Assembly: GCA_002082305.1 (NCBI GenBank)
Contig: LSNO01000076.1
Span: forward strand, 1,904 to 65,903
DNA from: SAR324 cluster bacterium SAR324-CTD7B
GTDB taxonomy: Bacteria; SAR324; NAC60-12
Length of the DNA stretch: 64,000 bases
Direction of reading: 5' to 3'
The notes beneath the pieces are model-generated. The model had not been told where the DNA came from. It saw only the letters and a program-made list of their open reading frames with translations, and did no database searches. Within the stretch, counting starts at the first letter, position 1. Every line of letters begins with the position of its first letter. Positions 6,048-62,190 of the stretch are shown here, piece by piece. A program made the translations under genes and the position numbers.

Positions 6048-6163
6048 AAATCATGTTTGTTAATTCTGTGGCAAATAATGGAAAGGATTTGATTGTGAGA
6101 CCCGCACCAGCTAGACTTTAAACACGATAATGATTTGAAAAAACACAATATCTGAAAGGGAAA

Positions 6164-6508
6164 ATGAGCAAACAAATAAATTGGGGTTATTTCAGGAATG
6201 GTTGAACATCCTGTAAGCGAGCGCAAGAGGTTCTTGACGCAAAAAATATTTCAGTAGAAACACGTGTTTTTGCCAACAAAGAAAAGATAAACAGCCAGGA
6301 AGCCTGGAAACTGATGGAGTCTGCAAGTCTTATTTTAACCGGTAAAGGTAAAAAAAGGAAGGATTGGAATCCTGCTTCTGATGACAAAGCAAATATTTTG
6401 AAAGATGTAATTGGTCCGAGTGGAAACCTGCGTGCTCCAACCTGGAGAATTGGCAATGAATTTATTGTGGGCTTTAATCCTGAACTTTATGAAGAGGTCT
6501 TTGGCTAA
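6164..6508 (+). CDS. ArsC/Spx-family thioredoxin-fold protein with in-frame TGA (6203-6205) read as selenocysteine (U-T-S-C redox motif)
   Basis: ATG at 6164 preceded by GAAAGGG. The frame is open except for the single TGA at codon 14. Read-through gives MSKQINWGYFRNG-U-TSCKRAQEVL...GNLRAPTWRIGNEFIVGFNPELYEEVFG. UTSCKRA aligns with the CTSCRKA/CxxC motif of the Spx/ArsC family. The ORF track shows only the 64-aa tail starting at 6314. Confidence 0.7.
6221..6240 (+). promoter_or_regulatory. Candidate bacterial SECIS hairpin downstream of the UGA at 6203
   Basis: GCGCAAG (6221-6227) pairs with CTTG-a-CGC (6233-6240): 7 bp with one bulged A. The apical loop AGGUU starts 25 nt after the UGA. Confidence 0.4.
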
Positions 6509-7537
6509 ATGGTAAGAATTGGAATAATTGGAGCAGCCGGTTTATCCGGACGTGAACTCCTGTATTTGCTGCAAAGTCATGATGAGGCGTCTGTTGAACT
6601 ACTGACTTCCAGTAAGTATCAAGGGAAGAAAGTCAATGATGTTTTTCCGGAGTTGACCGGTTCCAATCAAGTTTTTCAGCCTAACGATATTGACGTTACG
6701 GGATGCGATCTTGTTTTTCTTGCAATCCCCAATCAGGCCAGCTTGGAACGGGTTCCAAACTTATTGGAGCAGGGTGTACGGGTGATTGATCTTTCCGGAG
6801 CATTTCGTTTACGGGACAAAGAGGTTTTTTCCAAATTTTATAAGCTATCACATTCTGCCCCGGAGTTGCTGGAAGAAGCCGTATTCGGACTACCGGAATA
6901 TTTTAAAAGCGAAATTACCACAGCAAGACTGGTTGCAAATCCAGGATGTTATGCTACAGGTGCCTTGCTGGGGCTTTTGCCGTTGGGAGAGTTACTTGGG
7001 AAATTAGATCGGCCGCCGATAATTGATGCAAAATCAGGGGTGAGTGGTGCAGGAGGCAGGGTTGAAGATGACGTGACGAACTTTGTAAGTGTCAATGAAA
7101 ATTTCAAAGCCTACAAAGTTTTTTCACATCAGCACCAGCCTGAAATTCAGCAGTATTTGCAAGACCTCAGCCCGTATAGCTCGGATGTCACGGGAGAAAT
7201 TATCCTGACACCGCATTTACTTCCGCTTAGCCGAGGAATTTTATCCACGATTTACCTCCATTTCCGCGAACCTGTTACTTCAAGTGATATTTTGGAACGT
7301 TTTTCAACATTTGCTGAGAGTCAGGAATTTGTTCACTTTTTGGAGGAAGGAGATTTGCCAGATTTAATGATGACTGTGCATTCTAACCGCTGCATGATTG
7401 GAGCAGAGACTGATCAGTCCGGACAGAATTGTGTGATTGTCAGCAGCATCGATAATTTGGTCAAGGGTGCTTCAGGGCAGGCAATTCAAAATATGAATCT
7501 GATGTTTGGTTTGGATGAAAAGCAGGGCCTGCTTTGA
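6509..7537 (+). CDS. argC: N-acetyl-gamma-glutamyl-phosphate reductase
   Basis: 342 aa. N-terminal Rossmann IGIIGAAGLSGREL and active-site block ANPGCYATGALLGLLPL. The ATG directly follows the upstream TAA (TAAATG). Confidence 0.9.
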   Translation: MVRIGIIGAAGLSGRELLYLLQSHDEASVELLTSSKYQGKKVNDVFPELTGSNQVFQPNDIDVTGCDLVFLAIPNQASLERVPNLLEQGVRVIDLSGAFRLRDKEVFSKFYKLSHSAPELLEEAVFGLPEYFKSEITTARLVANPGCYATGALLGLLPLGELLGKLDRPPIIDAKSGVSGAGGRVEDDVTNFVSVNENFKAYKVFSHQHQPEIQQYLQDLSPYSSDVTGEIILTPHLLPLSRGILSTIYLHFREPVTSSDILERFSTFAESQEFVHFLEEGDLPDLMMTVHSNRCMIGAETDQSGQNCVIVSSIDNLVKGASGQAIQNMNLMFGLDEKQGLL

Positions 7538-8434
7538 TCATTCTTCGTCGAGTTCATCTTCAGTAATTCGACGATCCTGCCCCATCAAATTTTCGAAATA
7601 ACACATTTCCTTTAAACGGGAGTAAATGCGCTCACCCACACGTCTGTGAATGGTGTCGGCGATAAATTGTTCTGTTTCAGTTTTATCTCGACTGCGGATT
7701 TGTTCTTTGAGTGTGTTTTCTTCGCTTTCAGTAAAATTGGTGGTGACCATTATAATTTGATTGCGGTTGTAGCGCTCAGAAATCAGCATGTCGAGAATGC
7801 CTAGTTCCCAGTCACTGTTTCGTCCTTTGCCCATATCGTCGATGATGAGGATATCAGTCTGCAAATGAGGCTCAATAATTTCCATATCTGATTTTCCGTC
7901 GGAATAACCCTGTCTTAATTCTGAAAGCAACTCTGCAAAACTTTGAAAAATGCAGGATATACCATGACCAATAGTACATTGATAGACAAAACCTGTCATT
8001 AGGTGTGTTTTTCCGGTACCGGGAGGGCCCATAAGAACCATGCCTTTCAGGTCTTCCGTGTCGTTTTGCAAATTATTTTTATTGCTCAATCGCTGCGGCA
8101 GAAGCCGGAAAATGCTTTCAAGTAAATCAAATACCATCTCGTTTCCTGAATCTCGATCTTGCGAATTCAGTCGGCTGTTCAGGTAGCGACGGGGGATGCG
8201 GGCACTGTTATAGAGCTGAACGCGTTTTTTGATTTGTTCGCAGTCCGGGCATGTTATAGCAACATCACGTTGGAAACTGTCCTGCTCTACGAGGAAACCT
8301 GTACCTTTGCAGGTTTTGCAGGGACTTGAAACGCAGTCACAAAGTCTGGCGTGAGCATATCGTTCGCGTGGACGAACGCTGATAAAAATTCTGGTGTCGC
8401 TGCAACGCAGGCAGTCAGGAACAGTTTTAGCCAT
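7538..8434 (-). CDS. DnaC/DnaI/IstB-like AAA+ ATPase with N-terminal Cys-rich zinc-finger domain
   Basis: 298 aa. Eight Cys in CxxC-type pairs (C8/C11, C32/C34, C39/C42 as CKTCKGTG which fits CxxCxGxG, C62/C65). Walker A GPPGTGKTH, Walker B ILIIDDMG, sensor VTTN. No transposase adjacent. Confidence 0.65.
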   Translation of the reverse strand: MAKTVPDCLRCSDTRIFISVRPRERYAHARLCDCVSSPCKTCKGTGFLVEQDSFQRDVAITCPDCEQIKKRVQLYNSARIPRRYLNSRLNSQDRDSGNEMVFDLLESIFRLLPQRLSNKNNLQNDTEDLKGMVLMGPPGTGKTHLMTGFVYQCTIGHGISCIFQSFAELLSELRQGYSDGKSDMEIIEPHLQTDILIIDDMGKGRNSDWELGILDMLISERYNRNQIIMVTTNFTESEENTLKEQIRSRDKTETEQFIADTIHRRVGERIYSRLKEMCYFENLMGQDRRITEDELDEE

Positions 8435-9785: not shown

Positions 9786-11291
9786 CTACTGAGCAACGAT
9801 TCGGCCCTCTATTTTTGGAGAGACTGTACCTTTGGCTTTGATATAATCCATCACCATGCTTGCGAGGAGTGTGGCTCCGCTGGCATCGATGAGGACTTTG
9901 CCTTTTTTGAAAACCTTGTACCCATCTCCGCCACCGGCAGCATAGTTGTTGGTCGCCACGGTGTAACTGCGTCCCTTATCCAGGGGCTGACCGCCGATTT
10001 TCGCGGAAACAATACGCGCCCCGGCTTTGGCTTTTGGATTCCAGACGAAACTCATTCCGGAAACTTGAGGGAAACGTCCGGCCCCATTTTCGACCTGACT
10101 CACACCATTTTCAAGAGCTTCCCAAATTTGCGCTCCGGTCAGTCCAAGTTTTACAACGACGTTGCCGAAAGGAAGTTCGGTCAGGATATCGCCTCGAGTG
10201 AGTGATGTGCCAGGTTCATAGATTTTATTAGCCCGGATTCCTCCACCGTTGGCAATACCGATGTCCGCTCCCACTCCCTCACGCATGGCATCTGCGATCA
10301 GGTTGCCGATTGTGGCCTCTCCATATCGCACCGTCTTTTTTCGGCTGTCGAGTTCGGTTGTTGTTGTACCGATTTCAATGTCGAGTTCCTTGCTCAGACG
10401 ATCTTTGTAGCCTTTGACTTTTGCGGCAACCGCGGCATCTTCGGAGACATTTAGGGTGTCCACCATTCGCATGTCAGCTTCCCACTTGAAACGTTTTTTG
10501 CCGCGCTTTTCGTAGGACGTCATTTTTACATCCATCACGGCAACTTTTTCAGAATCTTCACCGGCTTCCATCCAGACGTGCTTCCCGTCATCCCAGGTGA
10601 TTAAATAGTGATCGTGTCCGGAAAGCAACACATCGACAATGCCGCTGTCAATCAATTCCTGATCTTCCAACACATCTATATGAGCCAGTGCCACAATCAG
10701 GTTTGCACCCTGTCCTTTCAGTTCTTTGGCCAGAGCTTTTGCTGTGGCAACTACAGGGAGAAACTCATCGGTTCCGGGACTGGAAATATCTTTTGTGTTT
10801 GTAGTGACAAGTCCCATAATCCCGACACGGAAAGAACCAACATTGACCATCGCGGTGCGCACGGTACCATCGATGGGTAAGCCGTCCGCATCAACAGCAT
10901 TGCTTGCTAAAATCGGAAAATTTGAATCCCAAATTCGTTCGCGCAAAATGTCCGTTCCAAAATCCCACTCATGATTTCCAAGTACCATGTAGTCCAGACC
11001 TACGGCATTCAGCATATCAACGATTTGAGCACCCTTGAGAATACCGGACATCAGGGATGGAGAATAAGCATCACCCGAATGGACGAAGATCGAGTGTTCG
11101 GCTCCGGCCTTTTCCTGTTTGACCACAGTGGCCAGTTTGGCAAATCCGCCACGCCCTTTTTTAGCAGGGAGGACGTAGTGATCACCTGTGAGGATGATCC
11201 GTAGTGTTTCTGTTTCGTCTGCCATTGCAGTCATTGGTGTAAAAGCAATCAGACTCGAAATGAGTCCGTAAAATACATATTTTAGTCGCAT
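9786..11291 (-). CDS. Secreted bifunctional metallophosphatase/5'-nucleotidase (UshA-like)
   Basis: 501 aa. Signal peptide MRLKYVFYGLISSLIAFTPMTAMA. Calcineurin-like motifs GDHY, HSGDAY, GNHEWDF, LSGHDH. C-terminal 5'-nucleotidase domain. Confidence 0.85.
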   Translation of the reverse strand: MRLKYVFYGLISSLIAFTPMTAMADETETLRIILTGDHYVLPAKKGRGGFAKLATVVKQEKAGAEHSIFVHSGDAYSPSLMSGILKGAQIVDMLNAVGLDYMVLGNHEWDFGTDILRERIWDSNFPILASNAVDADGLPIDGTVRTAMVNVGSFRVGIMGLVTTNTKDISSPGTDEFLPVVATAKALAKELKGQGANLIVALAHIDVLEDQELIDSGIVDVLLSGHDHYLITWDDGKHVWMEAGEDSEKVAVMDVKMTSYEKRGKKRFKWEADMRMVDTLNVSEDAAVAAKVKGYKDRLSKELDIEIGTTTTELDSRKKTVRYGEATIGNLIADAMREGVGADIGIANGGGIRANKIYEPGTSLTRGDILTELPFGNVVVKLGLTGAQIWEALENGVSQVENGAGRFPQVSGMSFVWNPKAKAGARIVSAKIGGQPLDKGRSYTVATNNYAAGGGDGYKVFKKGKVLIDASGATLLASMVMDYIKAKGTVSPKIEGRIVAQ

Positions 11292-13578: not shown

Positions 13579-14544
13579 ATGATATTAACAACCAAAACTA
13601 AAATGGAAAAAACCCACCACAAACTAATAATTTTAGGCTCCGGTCCTGCGGGATTGACTGCGGCAATTTATGCGGCAAGAGCCAACTTAAATCCTGTTGT
13701 CGTCTCTGGACGAGAGGCAGGAGGACAATTGATGATCACTACAGACGTTGAAAATTATCCTGGTTTTCCAGAAGGAATTCAAGGTCCGGAAATGATGGAT
13801 CTCCTGAAAGCCCAGGCCGCTCGTTTTGACACAGAATTTTTTTCCGGTGATGTGGTAGAAGTTGATTTGTCACAGCGACCATTTAAACTTACGTTGGAAA
13901 ACAAAGATACGTTGACCTGCGATTCACTGATTATTTCGTCTGGAGCCTCCGCGAGATGGCTTGGAATGGATTCAGAAAAAGAATACAGCGGCAGGGGGGT
14001 TTCTGCCTGTGCAACCTGCGACGGGTTTTTCTTTCGTGACCAGGATGTGGCCGTTGTAGGCGGAGGTGATACTGCGCTGGAAGAAGCTCTGTATTTGGCA
14101 AATATCTGTAAAAGTGTGACAATGATTCATCGACGCGATGAATTCCGAGGCAGCAAAATTATGCAGAAACGTGCTTTTGATCACAAGAAAATCTCAATAT
14201 TATGGGATACTGTTGTTGAAAAAGTAGTGGGTAACTCCAAGGACGGAATGACGTCCCTGAAAGTGAGGAACGTTAAAACGGATAAAGTTAAAGAACATCC
14301 TATCACAGGATTGTTCATTGCGATTGGACACACTCCAAATACAAATTTATTCAAAGATCAGTTGATTATGGACAAAAACGGTTATCTGAAAGTCACGCCT
14401 GGCACGACATATACGTCTGTCGAAGGCGTTTTTGCTTCAGGAGATGTTCAGGATCATGTTTATCGGCAAGCCGTTACTGCTGCAGGAACCGGATGTATGG
14501 CGGCCATTGATGCAGAGCGTTGGCTGGCTGAACAAATATGCTGA
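13579..14544 (+). CDS. trxB: Thioredoxin-disulfide reductase
   Basis: 321 aa. ILGSGPAGLTAAIYAAR FAD motif, redox centre CATCDGFFF, second dinucleotide motif VVGGGDTALEEA. Confidence 0.9.
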   Translation: MILTTKTKMEKTHHKLIILGSGPAGLTAAIYAARANLNPVVVSGREAGGQLMITTDVENYPGFPEGIQGPEMMDLLKAQAARFDTEFFSGDVVEVDLSQRPFKLTLENKDTLTCDSLIISSGASARWLGMDSEKEYSGRGVSACATCDGFFFRDQDVAVVGGGDTALEEALYLANICKSVTMIHRRDEFRGSKIMQKRAFDHKKISILWDTVVEKVVGNSKDGMTSLKVRNVKTDKVKEHPITGLFIAIGHTPNTNLFKDQLIMDKNGYLKVTPGTTYTSVEGVFASGDVQDHVYRQAVTAAGTGCMAAIDAERWLAEQIC

Positions 14545-14553
14545 ACATAATTA

Positions 14554-14592
14554 CCACTGCAGGAAACTAAATTAAAAAATTACCTGCAGTGG
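14554..14592 (+). terminator. Hairpin downstream of trxB (10-bp perfect stem, 19-nt A-rich loop)
   Basis: CCACTGCAGG (14554-14563) pairs with CCTGCAGTGG (14583-14592). It is followed by ATATTT and then an A-run. The large loop makes it an atypical terminator. Confidence 0.35.
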
Positions 14593-22299: not shown

Positions 22300-22366
22300 A
22301 GCCACAGACAACACGGATAAAAACGGATAGAAAAATATCCGTGACTATCTGCGCAAATCTGTGGCT
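22300..22366 (+). promoter_or_regulatory. Nested and mutually exclusive hairpins between the ligase gene and the Mo-enzyme genes
   Basis: Outer stem AGCCACAGA (22300-22308) / TCTGTGGCT (22358-22366). The 3' arm TATCCGTG (22336-22343) can pair with either CACGGATA (22312-19) or ACGGATA (22323-29). Confidence 0.5.
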
Positions 22367-22387
22367 GATAACAAAAAGAAAATTAAT

Positions 22388-22873
22388 ATGAAACAACTCT
22401 TAACTCTCAAAATCAACGGCGAAACTCACGAGGTTTGGACTTCGACTCACAAAACTTTGCTGGAAGTTTTGCGTGAAGATTTGTACCTCACCGGAACCAA
22501 ACACGGTTGTGAGTTGGGTGAGTGCGGAGCCTGTTCGGTGTTGATTGACGGAGAACCGGTTTTGGCCTGTCTTATTTTGCCTGTTGAGGTGCAGGGACAG
22601 GAGATCCAAACCATTGAAGGTTTAGCAAAAAATGGGGTTCCGCATCCACTGCAAACCGCTTTTGCAGAACAAGGCGCATCGCAATGCGGTTACTGTTCTC
22701 CGGCAATGTTGATGACCGCCAAAGCCCTGCTTGAAATAAATTCAAATCCGGATTCAAATACTATTCGAGAAGCCCTGTCCGGAACTTTGTGTCGCTGTAC
22801 CGGGTACTCAAAAATCATAGAAGCCGTAGAGCAAGCTGCTGGAGAATTAGCAGTGATGCGGCAAAATTCCTAA
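22388..22873 (+). CDS. [2Fe-2S]-binding small subunit of a xanthine-dehydrogenase-family molybdoenzyme (CoxS/HcrC-like)
   Basis: 161 aa from ATG 22388 (MKQLLTLKINGE, typical N-terminus). Cluster motifs GCELGECGACSV and CGYCSPAM...CRCTGY. Confidence 0.85.
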   Translation: MKQLLTLKINGETHEVWTSTHKTLLEVLREDLYLTGTKHGCELGECGACSVLIDGEPVLACLILPVEVQGQEIQTIEGLAKNGVPHPLQTAFAEQGASQCGYCSPAMLMTAKALLEINSNPDSNTIREALSGTLCRCTGYSKIIEAVEQAAGELAVMRQNS

Positions 22874-22893
22874 ATGTTCGAAGTAGAGTCACT

Positions 22894-23286
22894 ATGAAGA
22901 TTAAAATGCGTTTTTTCAGAATCATAACAGGTATTGGGATCACACTTTTAGTGTCTTCCTGTTCGGTTAGCACTTTCGGAAAATTTCAGGCAGATGAAGG
23001 AATTCCGTCTTTCATCCAAGTTGGAAAGACAACGAGAGAAGAAATCATGACCACTTTGGGAGAACCTCTGGTTCATCGCTTCGTGGTCGGCAAAGAAACG
23101 CTCATTTACAATCATGAACGGGGAGAATACTTTTTTCTCTATGGAACTTATGAAGGAAATGAATTGGTGATTCGTCTTACAGATCAAATCGTTTCTGAAG
23201 TGAAACTTGAAAAAACTGGCAGTGGATGGGGATTTTTTGCTCCGGCAACTTCCAACAATCCCGGTACAAGAAGAAGCGCAAGGTAA
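22894..23286 (+). CDS. Small lipoprotein, paralogue 1 (BamE/SmpA-OmlA-like pattern)
   Basis: 130 aa from ATG 22894. Signal peptide with lipobox LVSSC. Shares VGKTTREEI..LGEP and GWGF blocks with the next ORF. Confidence 0.6.
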   Translation: MKIKMRFFRIITGIGITLLVSSCSVSTFGKFQADEGIPSFIQVGKTTREEIMTTLGEPLVHRFVVGKETLIYNHERGEYFFLYGTYEGNELVIRLTDQIVSEVKLEKTGSGWGFFAPATSNNPGTRRSAR

Positions 23287-23290
23287 TCGT

Positions 23291-23683
23291 ATGACGAAAT
23301 TTTACTTTTTATTGCCGATCACCGGCATCTTACTTTTCATGTTGCTCGTTGGATGTGCCAAAACTCGAATTGGAAAAGTGGAATTATCCGATGAAAAACT
23401 GCCAAATTTTCTCAAAGTAGGAACAACGAGGGCACAAGAAGTTTTGGAACAGATTGGAGAACCTTTCGGCTACCGAGAACAAGAGAATCGTTCGGCAATG
23501 ATCTTCCTCGATTTTCAGGAAGATTATGTCAATTTATTGATCACAGAGATTCGGCTGGAAAAGGCATATCGGCTGGATTTGGTTTTTCAAGATGATATTT
23601 TGCAAAAAGCAGAAATCAAAAAAGAAGGATGGGGATTTGGTGCAAATATGGATCCTCAACTTTTACAATTGCTGGCCAGATAA
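23291..23683 (+). CDS. Small lipoprotein, paralogue 2
   Basis: 130 aa from ATG 23291. Lipobox LLVGC. Shares VGTTRAQEV..IGEP and GWGF blocks with the previous ORF. Confidence 0.6.
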   Translation: MTKFYFLLPITGILLFMLLVGCAKTRIGKVELSDEKLPNFLKVGTTRAQEVLEQIGEPFGYREQENRSAMIFLDFQEDYVNLLITEIRLEKAYRLDLVFQDDILQKAEIKKEGWGFGANMDPQLLQLLAR

Positions 23684-23721
23684 AACACTGTTTTTTCATT
23701 TTTTCAAGCATCAAATAGTTT

Positions 23722-26157
23722 ATGAGTGAAAACAAAGATTTCCAAGCGGGCCTTACATGGATTGGTAAATCTTGGGCTCAAGTAGACGGTTTGGCCAAAG
23801 CCAAAGGTGAGACCGTTTATGCTGATGACATGTTTTTACCGCGAATGCTCTTTGCCAAAATGTTGCGCAGTCCTCACCCGCACGCTCGGATCAAAAGCAT
23901 TGATTTGACACAGGCTTTGAAACGACCCGGAGTCGTGGCGGCCATGACGGGCAAAGATTTGCCGATTCCTTTTGGGATTTTGCCGGTGAGTCAGGACGAG
24001 GAATCGTTGTGTGTGGACAAAGTGCGCATGATTGGCGATCCGGTGGCGGCAGTGGCGGCCATTGACGAAGAAACAGCAGAGTCTGCACTCGAAGATATAG
24101 TCGTCGAATATGAGCTTTTGCCGTCTGTTTTGACCATTGAAGACGGTTTAAAATCCTTGGAAGAAACTGAAATTTCAAAAACGCAAATTCACGAATATGC
24201 CGATTCCGGAAATATTCACAAACAAGTGGCTCTCGAATTTGGCGACATCGAAACCGGATTTGCAGAAGCAGACCATATTCGCGAAGAACTTTATTATTAC
24301 GAAGGCAACACGCATTTGCCGATTGAACAACACTCTGCCGTCGCTCAACACGGAGCCGATGGACGGATCACGCTTTGGTCTTCCACGCAAACTCCGCACT
24401 ATGTTCACCGTGCTTTGGCCAAAGTTTTGGAAATGCCGGCCAGTCAAATTCGTGTAATTGCGACTCCGGTTGGTGGAGGATTTGGCGGAAAAACGGATCC
24501 GTTTCAACATGAAATGGTTGTGTGCAAACTGGCCATGATGACAGGTCGTCCGGTAAAATTGACTTTGACCCGCGAAGAAGTTTTTTACACACATCGTGGA
24601 CGTCATCCGGTATTGATGTGGGTCAAAGCCGGAATGAAGTCAGACGGTTCAATCACAGCTTTGCATTTTCGTAATTTTCTGGATGGCGGAGCATACGGAA
24701 GTTACGGTGTTGCCAGTACCTATTACACCGGTGCTTTGCAGACAGTGACGTATCCGATTGCAAATTACAAATTTGAAGCGATGCGGGTTTTCACCAATAA
24801 AGCTCCATGCGGTCCCAAACGAGGACACGGCACGCCGCAGCCCCGTTTTGCGCTGGAAGTTTTGCTTGACAAATTTGCTGAGGATTTGGAACTGGATCCG
24901 GCAGAATTACGCTTGCGACATTTGATACCGGACAACAGCAAAACCGTGAACCACCTCACAGTGACCACCAACGGTTTGGGTGAGTGCATCCGCAAAGTCA
25001 CGGAGGCTTCCAGATTCCAGCAGCAGCGAACGGGATCGTCTCTGGGCAAAGGTTTTGGGCTGGGATGCGGTTCTTATTTGAGCGGTGCGGGCCTGCCTGT
25101 TTACTGGAACAAAATGCCGCATTCCGGAGTGCAAATCAAAATCGACCGCGGTGGCGGCGTAACTGTTTTTTGCGGAAGCACGGACATCGGTCAAGGATCA
25201 AATTCTGTGCTGGCCGGAATTGTGGCCGAGGAACTGGGAATCGACATTGGGAATATTATTGTGGTCACAGCGGATACAGATTTAACTCCGGTCGATTTGG
25301 GAAGTTATTCCAGTCGTGTAACACTGATGACCGGAAATGCGGCCATTGACGCGGCTCGCCCTTTACGTGAAAAAATATTGTCTGCCGCATCCGAAGTTTT
25401 GAAAATTCCAGCAGAAAAATTAATGCTCCGGAATAGTTCTGTTTTATCAAAAAACGGTTCCGGAGAACCTGTTTCCTTTGTGGATGCCGTTCAATGGGCA
25501 GAAACAAAATACGGTATGCTGGGTTCCGTCGGCAGTTATACACCACCTAGTCACGGGGGAAAATACAAAGGCGCAGGTGTGGGGCCGTCCCCGAATTACA
25601 GCTATTCCGCTTGTGTTGCCGAAGTCACTTGTGATCCGGAAAGTGGAATTTATCGTGTGGACAAACTCTGGATGGCACACGATATCGGACAAGCGATCAA
25701 CGAAAAATTGGTCATCGGACAAGTCGAAGGCAGTGCGTACATGGGTTTGAGTGAGGCCATGATGGAAGAACAAATTTATCGCACCGGAAAAGACAACCCC
25801 GGAGGTTTGCACAAAACTCCGTCGATGTTGGATTACAAAAGTTTGACCGCACTCGATATGCCGGAAATCGAAACATTTTTAGTAGAAACGCATGATCCGG
25901 AAGGGCCGTACGGTGCCAAAGAAGCCGGCCAAGGGCCATTACTGCCGATCATGCCCGCCATCGCCAATGCGATTTACAATGCGGTCGGTGTGCGTGTCGA
26001 TGAAGTGCCGATTACTCCGGAAAAAATTTATCAAGGTTTAAAAGAGCTAAAATCCGGAAAGCCCGGAGGGTCCGGGGTTATTGGAAGAGTCGGCCCAAAG
26101 AAATTTCCAAAAATCACATTTCCGGAAGCCATCAAAGTGAAATCGGTTGACAGTTGA
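23722..26157 (+). CDS. Molybdopterin-binding large subunit of a xanthine-dehydrogenase-family enzyme (HcrA/CoxL-like)
   Basis: 811 aa. a/b-hammerhead N-terminus (YADDMFLPRMLFAKMLRSPHPHARI), GGGFGGK motif, C-terminal YGAKEAGQG block. Confidence 0.85.
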   Translation: MSENKDFQAGLTWIGKSWAQVDGLAKAKGETVYADDMFLPRMLFAKMLRSPHPHARIKSIDLTQALKRPGVVAAMTGKDLPIPFGILPVSQDEESLCVDKVRMIGDPVAAVAAIDEETAESALEDIVVEYELLPSVLTIEDGLKSLEETEISKTQIHEYADSGNIHKQVALEFGDIETGFAEADHIREELYYYEGNTHLPIEQHSAVAQHGADGRITLWSSTQTPHYVHRALAKVLEMPASQIRVIATPVGGGFGGKTDPFQHEMVVCKLAMMTGRPVKLTLTREEVFYTHRGRHPVLMWVKAGMKSDGSITALHFRNFLDGGAYGSYGVASTYYTGALQTVTYPIANYKFEAMRVFTNKAPCGPKRGHGTPQPRFALEVLLDKFAEDLELDPAELRLRHLIPDNSKTVNHLTVTTNGLGECIRKVTEASRFQQQRTGSSLGKGFGLGCGSYLSGAGLPVYWNKMPHSGVQIKIDRGGGVTVFCGSTDIGQGSNSVLAGIVAEELGIDIGNIIVVTADTDLTPVDLGSYSSRVTLMTGNAAIDAARPLREKILSAASEVLKIPAEKLMLRNSSVLSKNGSGEPVSFVDAVQWAETKYGMLGSVGSYTPPSHGGKYKGAGVGPSPNYSYSACVAEVTCDPESGIYRVDKLWMAHDIGQAINEKLVIGQVEGSAYMGLSEAMMEEQIYRTGKDNPGGLHKTPSMLDYKSLTALDMPEIETFLVETHDPEGPYGAKEAGQGPLLPIMPAIANAIYNAVGVRVDEVPITPEKIYQGLKELKSGKPGGSGVIGRVGPKKFPKITFPEAIKVKSVDS

Positions 26158-26226
26158 CGGTTCTGTATGCTTCTCTGTCACTTTGACAGAGAATAATTCG
26201 TGTCTTAATTCGTGTCGTAATTAATT

Positions 26227-27243
26227 ATGTTGCGCTTACCACCATTTGAATATCAAGCTCCAAACAGCATTGCTGAGGCTGTTGCACTGAAAGCAGAGTG
26301 CGGTGACTCGGCGATGTTTGTTTCCGGAGGAACAGATTTGTTTCCGAATATGAAACGGCGGCAATTCACACCGAAAATACTGATTGGTTTGCGGAAATTA
26401 GCAGAACTTCGCAGCATTAGTTTGGATGACTCCGGAAATGGATTAATGATTGGTTCCGGAGTTTCTTTGAGTGAAGTTGCGGAACATCCGGAAATCCTCA
26501 ATAATTTTCCGGCATTAGCAAAAGCAGCATCTTTGGTTTCTGCGCCACAGTTGCGGAATATGGGAACCATTGGCGGAAATTTGTGTTTGGATACACGATG
26601 TAATTATTACAACCAAACATTTCCATGGCGCAAAGCACTTGGATTTTGTTTGAAAAAACCGGAAAGTCCGATGCAAAACGATGCTATTTGCTGGGTGGCT
26701 CGCAGCAGTCCAAAATGTTTGGCGGTTTCGTCCTCTGATTGCGCTCCGGTGATGGTCGCCTTGGATGCGGAATTTCATTTGATGAATCCTGACGGTAAAC
26801 GCATTGTTCCGGCAGGAGGATTTTACAAAAATGACGGAATGGATTTTCTCAACAAAACTCCGGATGAATTGCTGGTATCCATTCACCTACCGTTACATGA
26901 AGGATGGAAAATGAATTACCGCAAATTAAGTCGGCGGGGTGCAATTGATTTTCCGGTGCTTGGCGTGGCAGTAGCATTGCGTTTGGACACATCCGGAAAT
27001 TGTATGGAAGCGCGGATTGTTTTGGGTGGGGTGGCTTCGTGTCCACTGCGGGCGTTTGAGGCGGAAAAACTTTTGGTGGGTGGCTCACTCACTGCGGAAG
27101 GGAGCCTGACACGGATTGAAAATACGGCTCAAGTAGCGGCAAAACTGGCAAAACCGATGGACAATACGGATATGACTTTGGGCTTCCGGAAGAAAATGGT
27201 GACGCAGTTTGTGGCGGAAACGATTAAGGAAGTTTTGAAGTAA
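26227..27243 (+). CDS. FAD-binding medium subunit with Cys-rich insertion (4-hydroxybenzoyl-CoA reductase beta, HcrB-like)
   Basis: 338 aa. FVSGGTDL and GTIGGNLC FAD-domain motifs. A ~40-residue insertion CLDTRCNYYNQTFPWRKALGFCLKK...ICW...KCL lies between GGNLC and SSSDCAPVMVALDAEF. Confidence 0.75.
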   Translation: MLRLPPFEYQAPNSIAEAVALKAECGDSAMFVSGGTDLFPNMKRRQFTPKILIGLRKLAELRSISLDDSGNGLMIGSGVSLSEVAEHPEILNNFPALAKAASLVSAPQLRNMGTIGGNLCLDTRCNYYNQTFPWRKALGFCLKKPESPMQNDAICWVARSSPKCLAVSSSDCAPVMVALDAEFHLMNPDGKRIVPAGGFYKNDGMDFLNKTPDELLVSIHLPLHEGWKMNYRKLSRRGAIDFPVLGVAVALRLDTSGNCMEARIVLGGVASCPLRAFEAEKLLVGGSLTAEGSLTRIENTAQVAAKLAKPMDNTDMTLGFRKKMVTQFVAETIKEVLK

Positions 27244-60921: not shown

Positions 60922-62190
60922 ATGCTTGATCTAAAAATAATCAGAAGCCAGCCTGAAGTAATTGCAGAGAATTGCCGAAAACGGAACGTTGACGTTGATA
61001 TTGAAAAATTGTTAGCATTTGATGAGCAAGTACGGCAGATTACATCTGAAGTTGATTCTGTCAGACAACGACGGAATGACATCAGTAATAAAATGAAAGG
61101 CAAAATTCCACCTGAGGAACGTCAGCCTCTGATTGAAGAATCAAAAAACTTGCGTGAAGAAGAGTCGGAAAAAGATTCAATACTTCGAGAACTGCTTGAG
61201 CAGCGGCTTGATTTGCACAAGCAGGTTCCAAACTTGACACATCCAGAATCTCCGGAAGGTTTTACTGATGAAGAAAATGTTCCAATTCGGGAAGTTGGAA
61301 CAAAACGCGAATTTGATTTTGAACCTAAGGACCATGTTGAGTTAATGGAAGCACTTGATTTGATTGACTTTGACGGAGGTGCAAAAGTTTCTGGACAAAA
61401 GTTTTACTACCTCAAAAATCAGGCTGTATTTTTGGAATTAGCTTTGGCCCAATATGCCCTGAGTTTGCTGCAAAAAGAAGGATTTACAGTACATATTACA
61501 CCGGACTTGGCTCGGCATCAGATTTTGGACGGTATTGGATTTAATCCACGTGGTGCAGAAACACAGATTTATTCAGTAGAAGAATCGGATCTCTGTCTGA
61601 TTGCGACTGCAGAAATAACTTTGGGCGGTTTGTTGATCGATCAGGTACTCCAACCGGAACAGTTACCGATTCTGTATGCAGGGCTTTCTCATTGTTACCG
61701 CACAGAAGCAGGTGCGGCCGGACGTGAATCACGAGGATTATACAGGGTACATCAGTTTTCTAAAATAGAAATGTTTGCCTTTACCCATCCAGATAAGTCT
61801 GAAGAAATGCATGAAAAAATGCGTGAAATTGAGGAACAAATTTACCAGGATTTGGAGATCCCATATCAGCTGGTTAATATTTGCGTAGGTGACCTTGGAG
61901 GAGCAGCTTATCGCAAATATGATTTGGAAGCCTGGATGCCGGGGCGTGGCAAATGGGGCGAGGTGACATCCACTTCAAACTGTACAGATTATCAGTCACG
62001 TCGCATGAACATTCGCTTTAAAGACCCGGAAACAGGAAAAAACAGATTTGTCCATATGCTAAATGGAACTGCAATTGCGGTTTCCAGAACTTTGATTGCC
62101 CTCATAGAGAATGGTCAACAAAAAGACGGTTCAATTAAACTCCCGCGTTGTTTGAATATTAAGGATATTCCAGCACCTGCTTCCGGATAA
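60922..62190 (+). CDS. serS: Serine-tRNA ligase
   Basis: 422 aa. MLDLKIIR start, N-terminal coiled coil, class II motifs (YRTEAGAAGRESRGLYRVHQF, NGTAIAVSRTLIALIEN). Confidence 0.92.
   Translation: MLDLKIIRSQPEVIAENCRKRNVDVDIEKLLAFDEQVRQITSEVDSVRQRRNDISNKMKGKIPPEERQPLIEESKNLREEESEKDSILRELLEQRLDLHKQVPNLTHPESPEGFTDEENVPIREVGTKREFDFEPKDHVELMEALDLIDFDGGAKVSGQKFYYLKNQAVFLELALAQYALSLLQKEGFTVHITPDLARHQILDGIGFNPRGAETQIYSVEESDLCLIATAEITLGGLLIDQVLQPEQLPILYAGLSHCYRTEAGAAGRESRGLYRVHQFSKIEMFAFTHPDKSEEMHEKMREIEEQIYQDLEIPYQLVNICVGDLGGAAYRKYDLEAWMPGRGKWGEVTSTSNCTDYQSRRMNIRFKDPETGKNRFVHMLNGTAIAVSRTLIALIENGQQKDGSIKLPRCLNIKDIPAPASG

Follow-up and report, generated by a model that had tools for sequence, protein, structure and literature searches.

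An in-frame TGA conceals a predicted U-x-x-C selenoprotein of the ArsC/Spx/YffB superfamily in SAR324 bacteria

The stretch of DNA analysed here (the window) comprises 64,000 nucleotides (nt) of contig LSNO01000076.1 from the SAR324 cluster bacterium SAR324-CTD7B. At positions 6164–6508 on its + strand lies a single frame of 114 codons, from an ATG (6164–6166) to a TAA (6506–6508), whose sole internal TGA is codon 14 (6203–6205). When this TGA is read as selenocysteine (Sec, U) the product is MSKQINWGYFRNG-U-TSCKRAQ...ELYEEVFG. At the locus the list of open reading frames (ORFs) holds only two entries, one of 64 aa that starts at Met 6314 and one of 89 aa on the antisense strand (6187–6456). 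An earlier reading of the letters alone, here called the original prediction, had proposed that the TGA hides a U-x-x-C selenoprotein of the ArsC/Spx family. Its ATG, the GAAAGGG that precedes it, the single TGA, the 114 codons and the content of the ORF list are all accurate to the base, and its central proposal is supported by a family model, by the pairing of Sec and Cys among homologues and by coding conservation.

From the comparisons described below it is very probable that positions 6164–6508 encode a 114-residue selenoprotein of the ArsC/Spx/YffB thioredoxin-fold superfamily, a member of family NF041106 in which UGA is read as Sec. The family is already catalogued; the SAR324 gene adds to it another member, one that has been mis-annotated. 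Among the bacterial lineages of the deep ocean SAR324 ranks with the most abundant. Beyond the correction of annotation and the evidence for selenocysteine use in SAR324, the interest of the gene is modest.

Codon 14 and the coding sequence around it

A protein search returned 261 relatives, mostly 64–65-aa entries named 'hypothetical protein' from SAR324 or 'Deltaproteobacteria' metagenome-assembled genomes (MAGs); in these the gene is the same but has been truncated at the TGA. When species-representative genomes were scanned, 19 loci emerged, and the state of each was read at the aligned codon 14. TGA is present in 11 of 11 SAR324 reference genomes, in four Desulfuromonadales (Desulfuromusa kysingii DSM 7343, Desulfuromusa sp. 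and two Geopsychrobacteraceae) and in one Krumholzibacteriota MAG. Three further Sec forms bring the non-SAR324 sequences with TGA to eight; the TGA homologues from other phyla are only 43–50% identical. A census of metagenome contigs was made with a degenerate pattern that left codon 14 free and required the hairpin described below, and this set was used for the codon census only; all 55 contigs have TGA.

The original prediction held that the TGA replaces a catalytic Cys, and homologues with Cys at codon 14 were indeed found. Three occur in the genome scan, an unclassified bacterium (L017, C-T-T-C), a Planctomycetota MAG (L022, C-T-T-C) and a YffB-like Burkholderiales protein (L024). A second protein search, seeded with a Cys form, turned up ten relatives of full length that have Cys where the Sec forms have TGA. 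These are single proteins of 112–117 aa, named 'arsenate reductase-like glutaredoxin family protein' (NCBI, JGI), and several of them match PF03960.

Full-length 114-aa database calls also exist, all on very short contigs, and show Trp at codon 14. The Trp in these public calls (P0001–P0021, P0122–P0130) appears because the gene caller chose genetic code 4: the DNA of two (L001, L002) reads TGA, and three more (L083–L085) fail to translate under table 11. On longer contigs truncated calls of 64–65 aa or 79–85 aa are found instead of the full-length Trp form. Trp read-through and truncation are a systematic annotation artefact for selenoprotein genes, and the SAR324 orthologues now stored in these two forms should be annotated as NF041106 selenoproteins. 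Reassignment of the genetic code (codes 4 or 25), which the many Trp calls had brought into question, was rejected: the Trp is TGA in the DNA that was read, and TGA is a normal stop here, terminating 22 of the window's 51 other long ORFs.

Codon-position diversity was taken as the mean pairwise differences among 17 ungapped SAR324 sequences. For codon positions 1, 2 and 3 it is 0.049, 0.035 and 0.30 in codons 1–13, 0.114, 0.059 and 0.257 in codons 15–50, and 0.154, 0.101 and 0.41 in codons 51–114. The differences are biased to third positions both upstream and downstream of the TGA, so both segments are protein-coding and purifying selection extends across it; the coding conservation on which the original prediction depended thus continues upstream of the TGA. 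Met51 (6314), the first residue of the 64-aa ORF, is unconserved, being Leu in many orthologues or replaced by a Met one codon earlier. This rules out a consistent start of homologues at Met 6314, which the original prediction had named as an outcome that would tell against it.

Family, fold and the hairpin past the TGA

With U replaced by C, the product matches NCBIfam model NF041106 ('ArsC_rel_Se_1, ArsC family (seleno)protein') at 120.5 bits, above the curated cutoff of 85 bits, with E = 4.3e-35 and over profile positions 1–107 of 107. The [U/C]-x-x-C motif after strand beta-1 is present as U14-T-S-C17, with TGA or Cys at position 14 in relatives. Both C17 and the signature G-P-x-G-N-L-R-A-P are invariant in alignments of relatives. 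Other models fare differently. PF03960 and TIGR00014 give no match to the window protein at E <= 1, glutaredoxin PF00462 stays below threshold (16.9 bits vs 22.9) and covers residues 10–35 only, the Spx/MgsR model TIGR01617 fails its cutoff (18.3 bits vs 75.05), and the Spx equivalogs NF002459 and NF009885 fail theirs (12–14 bits vs 123–152). The ArsC link of the original prediction stands through the NCBIfam model, a profile search of the PDB, the predicted fold and the PF03960 matches of Cys-form relatives, but PF03960 itself misses the window protein. That the 64-aa fragment would lack strand beta-1 and the active site was borne out; it also has no Pfam match and no match to any family.

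Against the PDB, the family profile finds the putative ArsC 2M46 (7e-7), Spx (1Z3E and 3GFK, about 1e-6, best 9e-7) and YffB (1RW1, 2e-5). Spx of Bacillus subtilis is the closest solved structure by both profile and fold. The profile places [U/C]-T-S-C exactly on Spx C10-T-S-C13, the position to which the original prediction had assigned U-T-S-C, and L-R-A-P on Spx L-R-R-P. An AlphaFold model was made for a natural Cys-form member (P0121) rather than for the window sequence. This model (pLDDT 91.7, pTM 0.84) has Cys13 just ahead of a helix at 14–25 and a beta-hairpin at 53–66. Foldseek searches with it rank Spx, ArsC-related proteins and YffB at the top, followed by glutaredoxin and NrdH, with TM-scores of only about 0.5. 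YffB (PA3664, 1RW1) and the ArsC-related 2M46, 2KOK and 3GKX share the ArsC-superfamily fold of about 115 residues and the conserved Arg-Pro loop. Unlike the window protein, YffB lacks the second Cys; its only one lies in a C-D-T-V-like motif, as it does in L024, and its function is not well defined. The window protein belongs to a subfamily of its own within the ArsC/Spx/YffB superfamily, and is most probably neither Spx nor a classical arsenate reductase.

Selenoproteins of this kind have been reported before. In 2006 ArsC-like selenoproteins were described in Desulfotalea psychrophila, together with a 'distant ArsC homolog' in Desulfuromonas acetoxidans (PMC1794560). They are likewise deltaproteobacterial, and the TGA orthologues found here come from the related Desulfuromusa and Geopsychrobacter; the earlier selenoproteins may be orthologous to the SAR324 gene. 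The 2008 Global Ocean Sampling (GOS) survey listed 'Arsenate reductase 2, cd03032, UxxC'; 21 of its samples yielded 42 Sec sequences, and 238 homologues had Cys (PMC2398784). The Sec sequences too are marine, ArsC/Spx-like and UxxC, with a predicted selenocysteine insertion sequence (SECIS) past the TGA, and by motif, habitat and domain they are probably the same as NF041106 and the SAR324 clade. The domain, cd03032, is presumably the ArsC_Spx model of CDD. A 2026 review lists NF041106 as the prokaryotic selenoprotein family 'Arsenate reductase-like protein, UxxC' (PMC13188914). The window protein matches its full model, with the same UxxC and the same Sec/Cys dimorphism, and no distinguishing feature was found; the SAR324 members differ merely in being cut to 64–65 aa in most public annotations.

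Bacterial SECIS (bSECIS) elements are characterised by a stem-loop that directly follows the UGA and by a guanosine in its small apical loop (PMC1088965). The predicted hairpin at 6221–6240, GCGCAAGA-GGU-UCUUG(A)CGC, has these features, with 8 bp, one bulged A and an apical loop GGU (6229–6231) that begins 23 nt past the UGA. The usual quantitative limits, such as a spacing of 16–37 nt, are said to come from the bSECISearch work. A hairpin of 7–8 bp with a G-containing loop (GGU, GUU, AGUU, AGGUG or AGUUC) 22–23 nt past the UGA occurs in each of the 13 distinct Sec forms, which represent four phylum-level groups; only one of five Cys forms has an equivalent. In 12 diverse Sec forms the upper stem, made of the five inner pairs, is paired in 95% of cells, against 33–67% in slid controls. 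The outer pairs vary by clade yet stay paired, the sixth being G-C, U-A, U-G or C-G, and the register shifts slightly between clades. In a SAR324 set gathered by protein-level patterns, synonymous diversity in codons 20–26 is 0.018, compared with 0.356 in the rest of the gene, and the lowest 7-codon window of the whole gene is codons 21–27.

Selenocysteine decoding and the alternatives

From what is established for UxxC and CxxC proteins of the thioredoxin fold, we infer Sec insertion that depends on SelB, followed by a redox cycle. The UGA at 6203–6205 would be decoded as Sec, with the hairpin acting as a SECIS that brings SelB, loaded with GTP and Sec-tRNA(Sec), to a ribosome stalled on that codon. 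Sec14 would then stand just before helix alpha-1, where Spx, ArsC and glutaredoxins have their nucleophilic Cys, and Cys17 one helical turn on. The most likely activity is a selenol/thiol oxidoreductase cycle, in which a disulfide, a mixed disulfide or some other small electrophile would be the oxidised substrate that the Sec14 selenolate attacks. Cys17 would resolve the adduct to give an intramolecular selenenylsulfide, which the thioredoxin or glutaredoxin system would re-reduce. A cultured carrier of the gene, D. kysingii DSM 7343, opens an experimental route to the function of the family.

Several observations weigh against this reading. The five loop-proximal pairs of the hairpin are near-invariant and show zero compensatory changes by RNAalifold and pair counting, and they lie in the conserved codons A-Q-E-V/F-L; that test alone would not prove a structure. 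Folded as a single sequence, 60 nt are no more stable than shuffles (z = -0.16). In the Cys form L080 (317–661, JGI 3300009345, C-T-S-C) the Cys codon is followed after 23 nt by a GUU loop that caps a perfect hairpin of 8 bp, much as in the Sec forms. This hairpin may be the fossil SECIS of a recent Sec-to-Cys conversion, or may be partly dictated by the peptide A-Q-K-F-F-E. Since the inner pairs sit in conserved codons and this Cys form shares the hairpin, selection on the protein sequence could account for some of the pairing. Codon 14 is also not invariably TGA. Within one SAR324 subclade, genes that are intact read CGA (Arg) or TTA (Leu) there (L003 35–379, L004 35–379, L005 8–352), which is unexpected for an indispensable catalytic residue. 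The CGA allele was seen in two samples, their genes one synonymous codon apart, and from their nearest TGA relative the CGA and TTA alleles differ by 8–11 synonymous and 4–6 mostly conservative non-synonymous codons. No Cys allele was seen at codon 14 in SAR324 sequences. That the Arg and Leu alleles reveal a second, Sec-independent role of the protein is a remote possibility. Gene-neighbourhood comparison across phyla gave no conserved neighbour outside SAR324, so no substrate or partner can be deduced from the context.

The Sec machinery gives further points on that side. The 64-kb window contains no selA, selB, selD or tRNA-Sec: ARAGORN found no tRNA of any kind in it, a six-frame motif scan for SelD (G[UC]GCK) and SelB (GHVDHGKT) gave no match, and an Rfam gathering scan of the whole window had no matches. 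A search for a second selenoprotein gene, with TGA as sense, in the window and its larger intergenic gaps found none that is convincing, only trivial C-terminal read-throughs, an ordinary ACBP gene and a lipoprotein-like ORF. A seryl-tRNA synthetase gene is present in the window. Although SerS charges tRNA-Sec as well in organisms that decode Sec, it is a housekeeping enzyme, and its gene does not count as evidence of a Sec trait. The only literature found on Sec machinery in SAR324 is a 2016 survey that lists two SAR324 single-cell genomes as 'orphan SelD', having SelD and no other Sec-trait or detected selenoprotein genes (PMC5029168). Both genomes are incomplete. Because each SAR324 reference genome retrieved here carries the predicted selenoprotein gene, the listing probably reflects this incompleteness or a missed gene, and such a conserved gene, with a SECIS-like element, implies that the SAR324 lineage would decode Sec. 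There is a very small chance that SAR324 is a true orphan-SelD lineage, lacking SelA, SelB and tRNA-Sec, in which this UGA-plus-hairpin gene would be decoded non-canonically.

Is the TGA simply a stop? Or is UGA translated as something other than Sec? Were it a stop, the frame would be a pseudogene or carry a sequencing error, or the real gene would be the 64-aa ORF alone, with non-coding DNA upstream. Nearly all public annotations, and most of the 261 matches, do have that 64–65-aa form, in a genome where TGA is a normal stop. Yet upwards of 70 independent assemblies, and other phyla as well, have TGA at this very codon, third-position-biased substitution marks both the segment upstream of the TGA and that between the TGA and the unconserved Met51, and the Cys orthologues are single proteins of full length, whereas the 64-aa fragment is without strand beta-1, active site or family match. 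The conservation of the TGA and the coding-type substitution effectively refute a true stop. Translation without Sec, by near-cognate read-through, by a suppressor tRNA (Trp, Cys, Arg) or by a SelD-dependent non-canonical route that bypasses SelA and SelB, would accord with the orphan-SelD listing and with the Arg and Leu alleles tolerated at the site. We hold it to be most unlikely. The family is curated as one of selenoproteins, with Sec and Cys alternating among its members; the SECIS-like hairpin, its synonymous sites frozen, lies at just the place that decoding through SelB requires; and the same architecture recurs in Desulfuromonadales, an order with documented Sec use (PMC1794560). The single-cell genomes behind the listing are, moreover, those whose incompleteness was noted above, and the survey missed a gene that every SAR324 reference genome retrieved possesses.

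The function of a Sec-containing product can also be read in other ways. A genuine As(V)-detoxifying arsenate reductase like R773 ArsC, with Sec for the catalytic Cys, is suggested by public names that include 'arsenate reductase-like', by the PF03960 matches of some Cys-form relatives and by the arsenate-reductase selenoproteins of marine metagenomes (PMC1088965). In an hhalign comparison with the R773 ArsC sequence, validated beforehand against PDB 1I9D, Sec14 aligns with the nucleophile Cys12, but with E = 0.17 the similarity is not significant, and the alignment ended short of Arg60 and Arg107 of the Arg60/Arg94/Arg107 triad; R90 of the window protein falls within the conserved Arg-Pro loop. 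Its motif, UxxC, differs from the CxxS of ArsC and the UxxS of the 'Arsenate reductase 1' selenoproteins, PF03960 and TIGR00014 find nothing, and no ars genes (arsR, arsB, acr3) are near, the neighbours being a methyltransferase, argC, an IstB-like ATPase and hemE. This function is accordingly improbable. Somewhat less probable again is an Spx-like redox-sensing regulator that would bind the C-terminal domain of RNA polymerase alpha (alpha-CTD) and use a Sec-Cys switch in place of Cys-Cys, with Sec for Cys10. For all the likeness to Spx in profile, fold and the aligned C-T-S-C, the protein fails every Spx model, the equivalogs by more than TIGR01617, the TM-scores are low, the central segment differs (a beta-hairpin in the model) and the C-terminal extension of Spx is absent. 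Regulators of the Spx kind belong to the Firmicutes, and Sec usually occupies catalytic rather than sensor sites, which also counts against a regulator.

Gene context and other features of the window

The coordinates of the predicted selenoprotein gene, its parts and other features of the window are collected in Table 1. The ATG of the argC-like gene directly abuts the selenoprotein stop, an adjacency kept in 11 of 11 SAR324 loci, so the two genes are probably co-transcribed in SAR324; no terminator-like site lies between them on the + strand. Other neighbours are genes for a class-I glutamine amidotransferase, a sulfatase, a methyltransferase, an IstB-like ATPase and a 5'-nucleotidase, with hemE, mutL and a thioredoxin reductase-like gene. 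Over 6.3 kb the window is 96.6% identical to SAR324 MAG FRAM18_bin343 (CAJJCY01).

Table 1. Positions of the predicted selenoprotein gene, its elements and other features within the window
Feature	Position	Strand	Basis or remark
Shine-Dalgarno-like GAAAGGG	6154–6160	+	3 nt before the ATG; GGAGG or GAGG at that place in orthologues
Predicted full selenoprotein coding sequence, including Sec14 and TAA	6164–6508	+	NF041106 match; third-position-biased substitution over the whole length
Predicted Sec codon TGA, residue 14	6203–6205	+	First position of the U-T-S-C motif
Cys17 codon TGT, proposed resolving cysteine of UxxC	6212–6214	+	Invariant alignment column; aligns with Spx Cys13
Predicted bacterial SECIS hairpin	6221–6240	+	Folding, conserved pairing, low synonymous diversity
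64-aa ORF reported by gene callers	6314–6508	+	C-terminal fragment, not a separate gene; Met unconserved, no Pfam match
R90-A91-P92 codons	6431–6439	+	Within invariant G-P-S-G-N-L-R-A-P; conserved loop with Arg and cis-Pro in the ArsC/Spx/YffB fold; L-R-R-P in Spx and K-R-P in YffB align here
argC-like gene (N-acetyl-gamma-glutamyl-phosphate reductase family)	6509–7537	+	Pfam Semialdhyde_dh, Semialdhyde_dhC_1
IstB-like AAA+ ATPase gene	7538–8434	-	298 aa
Secreted 5'-nucleotidase/UshA-like gene	9786–11291	-	Metallophos and 5_nucleotid_C
Thioredoxin-reductase-like gene	13579–14550	+	Ends ...E-Q-I-C-TGA-ACA-TAA
Inverted repeat	14554–14592		Perfect 10 bp, 19-nt G-free loop
Molybdenum-hydroxylase cluster	22361–27243	+	Xanthine/CO-dehydrogenase type
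2Fe-2S subunit gene	22361–22873	+	Part of the molybdenum-hydroxylase cluster
Unassigned 158-aa ORF	23207–23683	+	Between the 2Fe-2S and molybdopterin-binding subunit genes
Molybdopterin-binding large subunit gene	23722–26157	+	Part of the molybdenum-hydroxylase cluster
FAD-binding subunit gene	26227–27243	+	Part of the molybdenum-hydroxylase cluster
Seryl-tRNA synthetase gene	60922–62190	+	Housekeeping

The IstB-like gene is convergent with argC, the stops of the two abutting, and its product has a Cys-rich N-terminus with several CxxC pairs. With no IstA-like transposase beside it, the gene is unlikely to belong to an IS21 element.

Some features of the window touch on selenium in other ways. 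It carries a molybdenum-hydroxylase cluster; according to a reference cited in PMC5029168, orphan SelD has been linked to Se-dependent molybdenum hydroxylases. The GOS survey reported a CxU selenoprotein form of COG0737 UshA-like proteins (PMC2398784), and the UshA-like gene of the window has no in-frame TGA. Read-through of the TGA that ends the thioredoxin-reductase-like gene would give a C-terminal C-U-T, which is probably chance. The perfect inverted repeat that starts 9 nt past that TGA (CCACTGCAGG ... CCTGCAGTGG) has the look of a terminator or a repeat element rather than of a SECIS.

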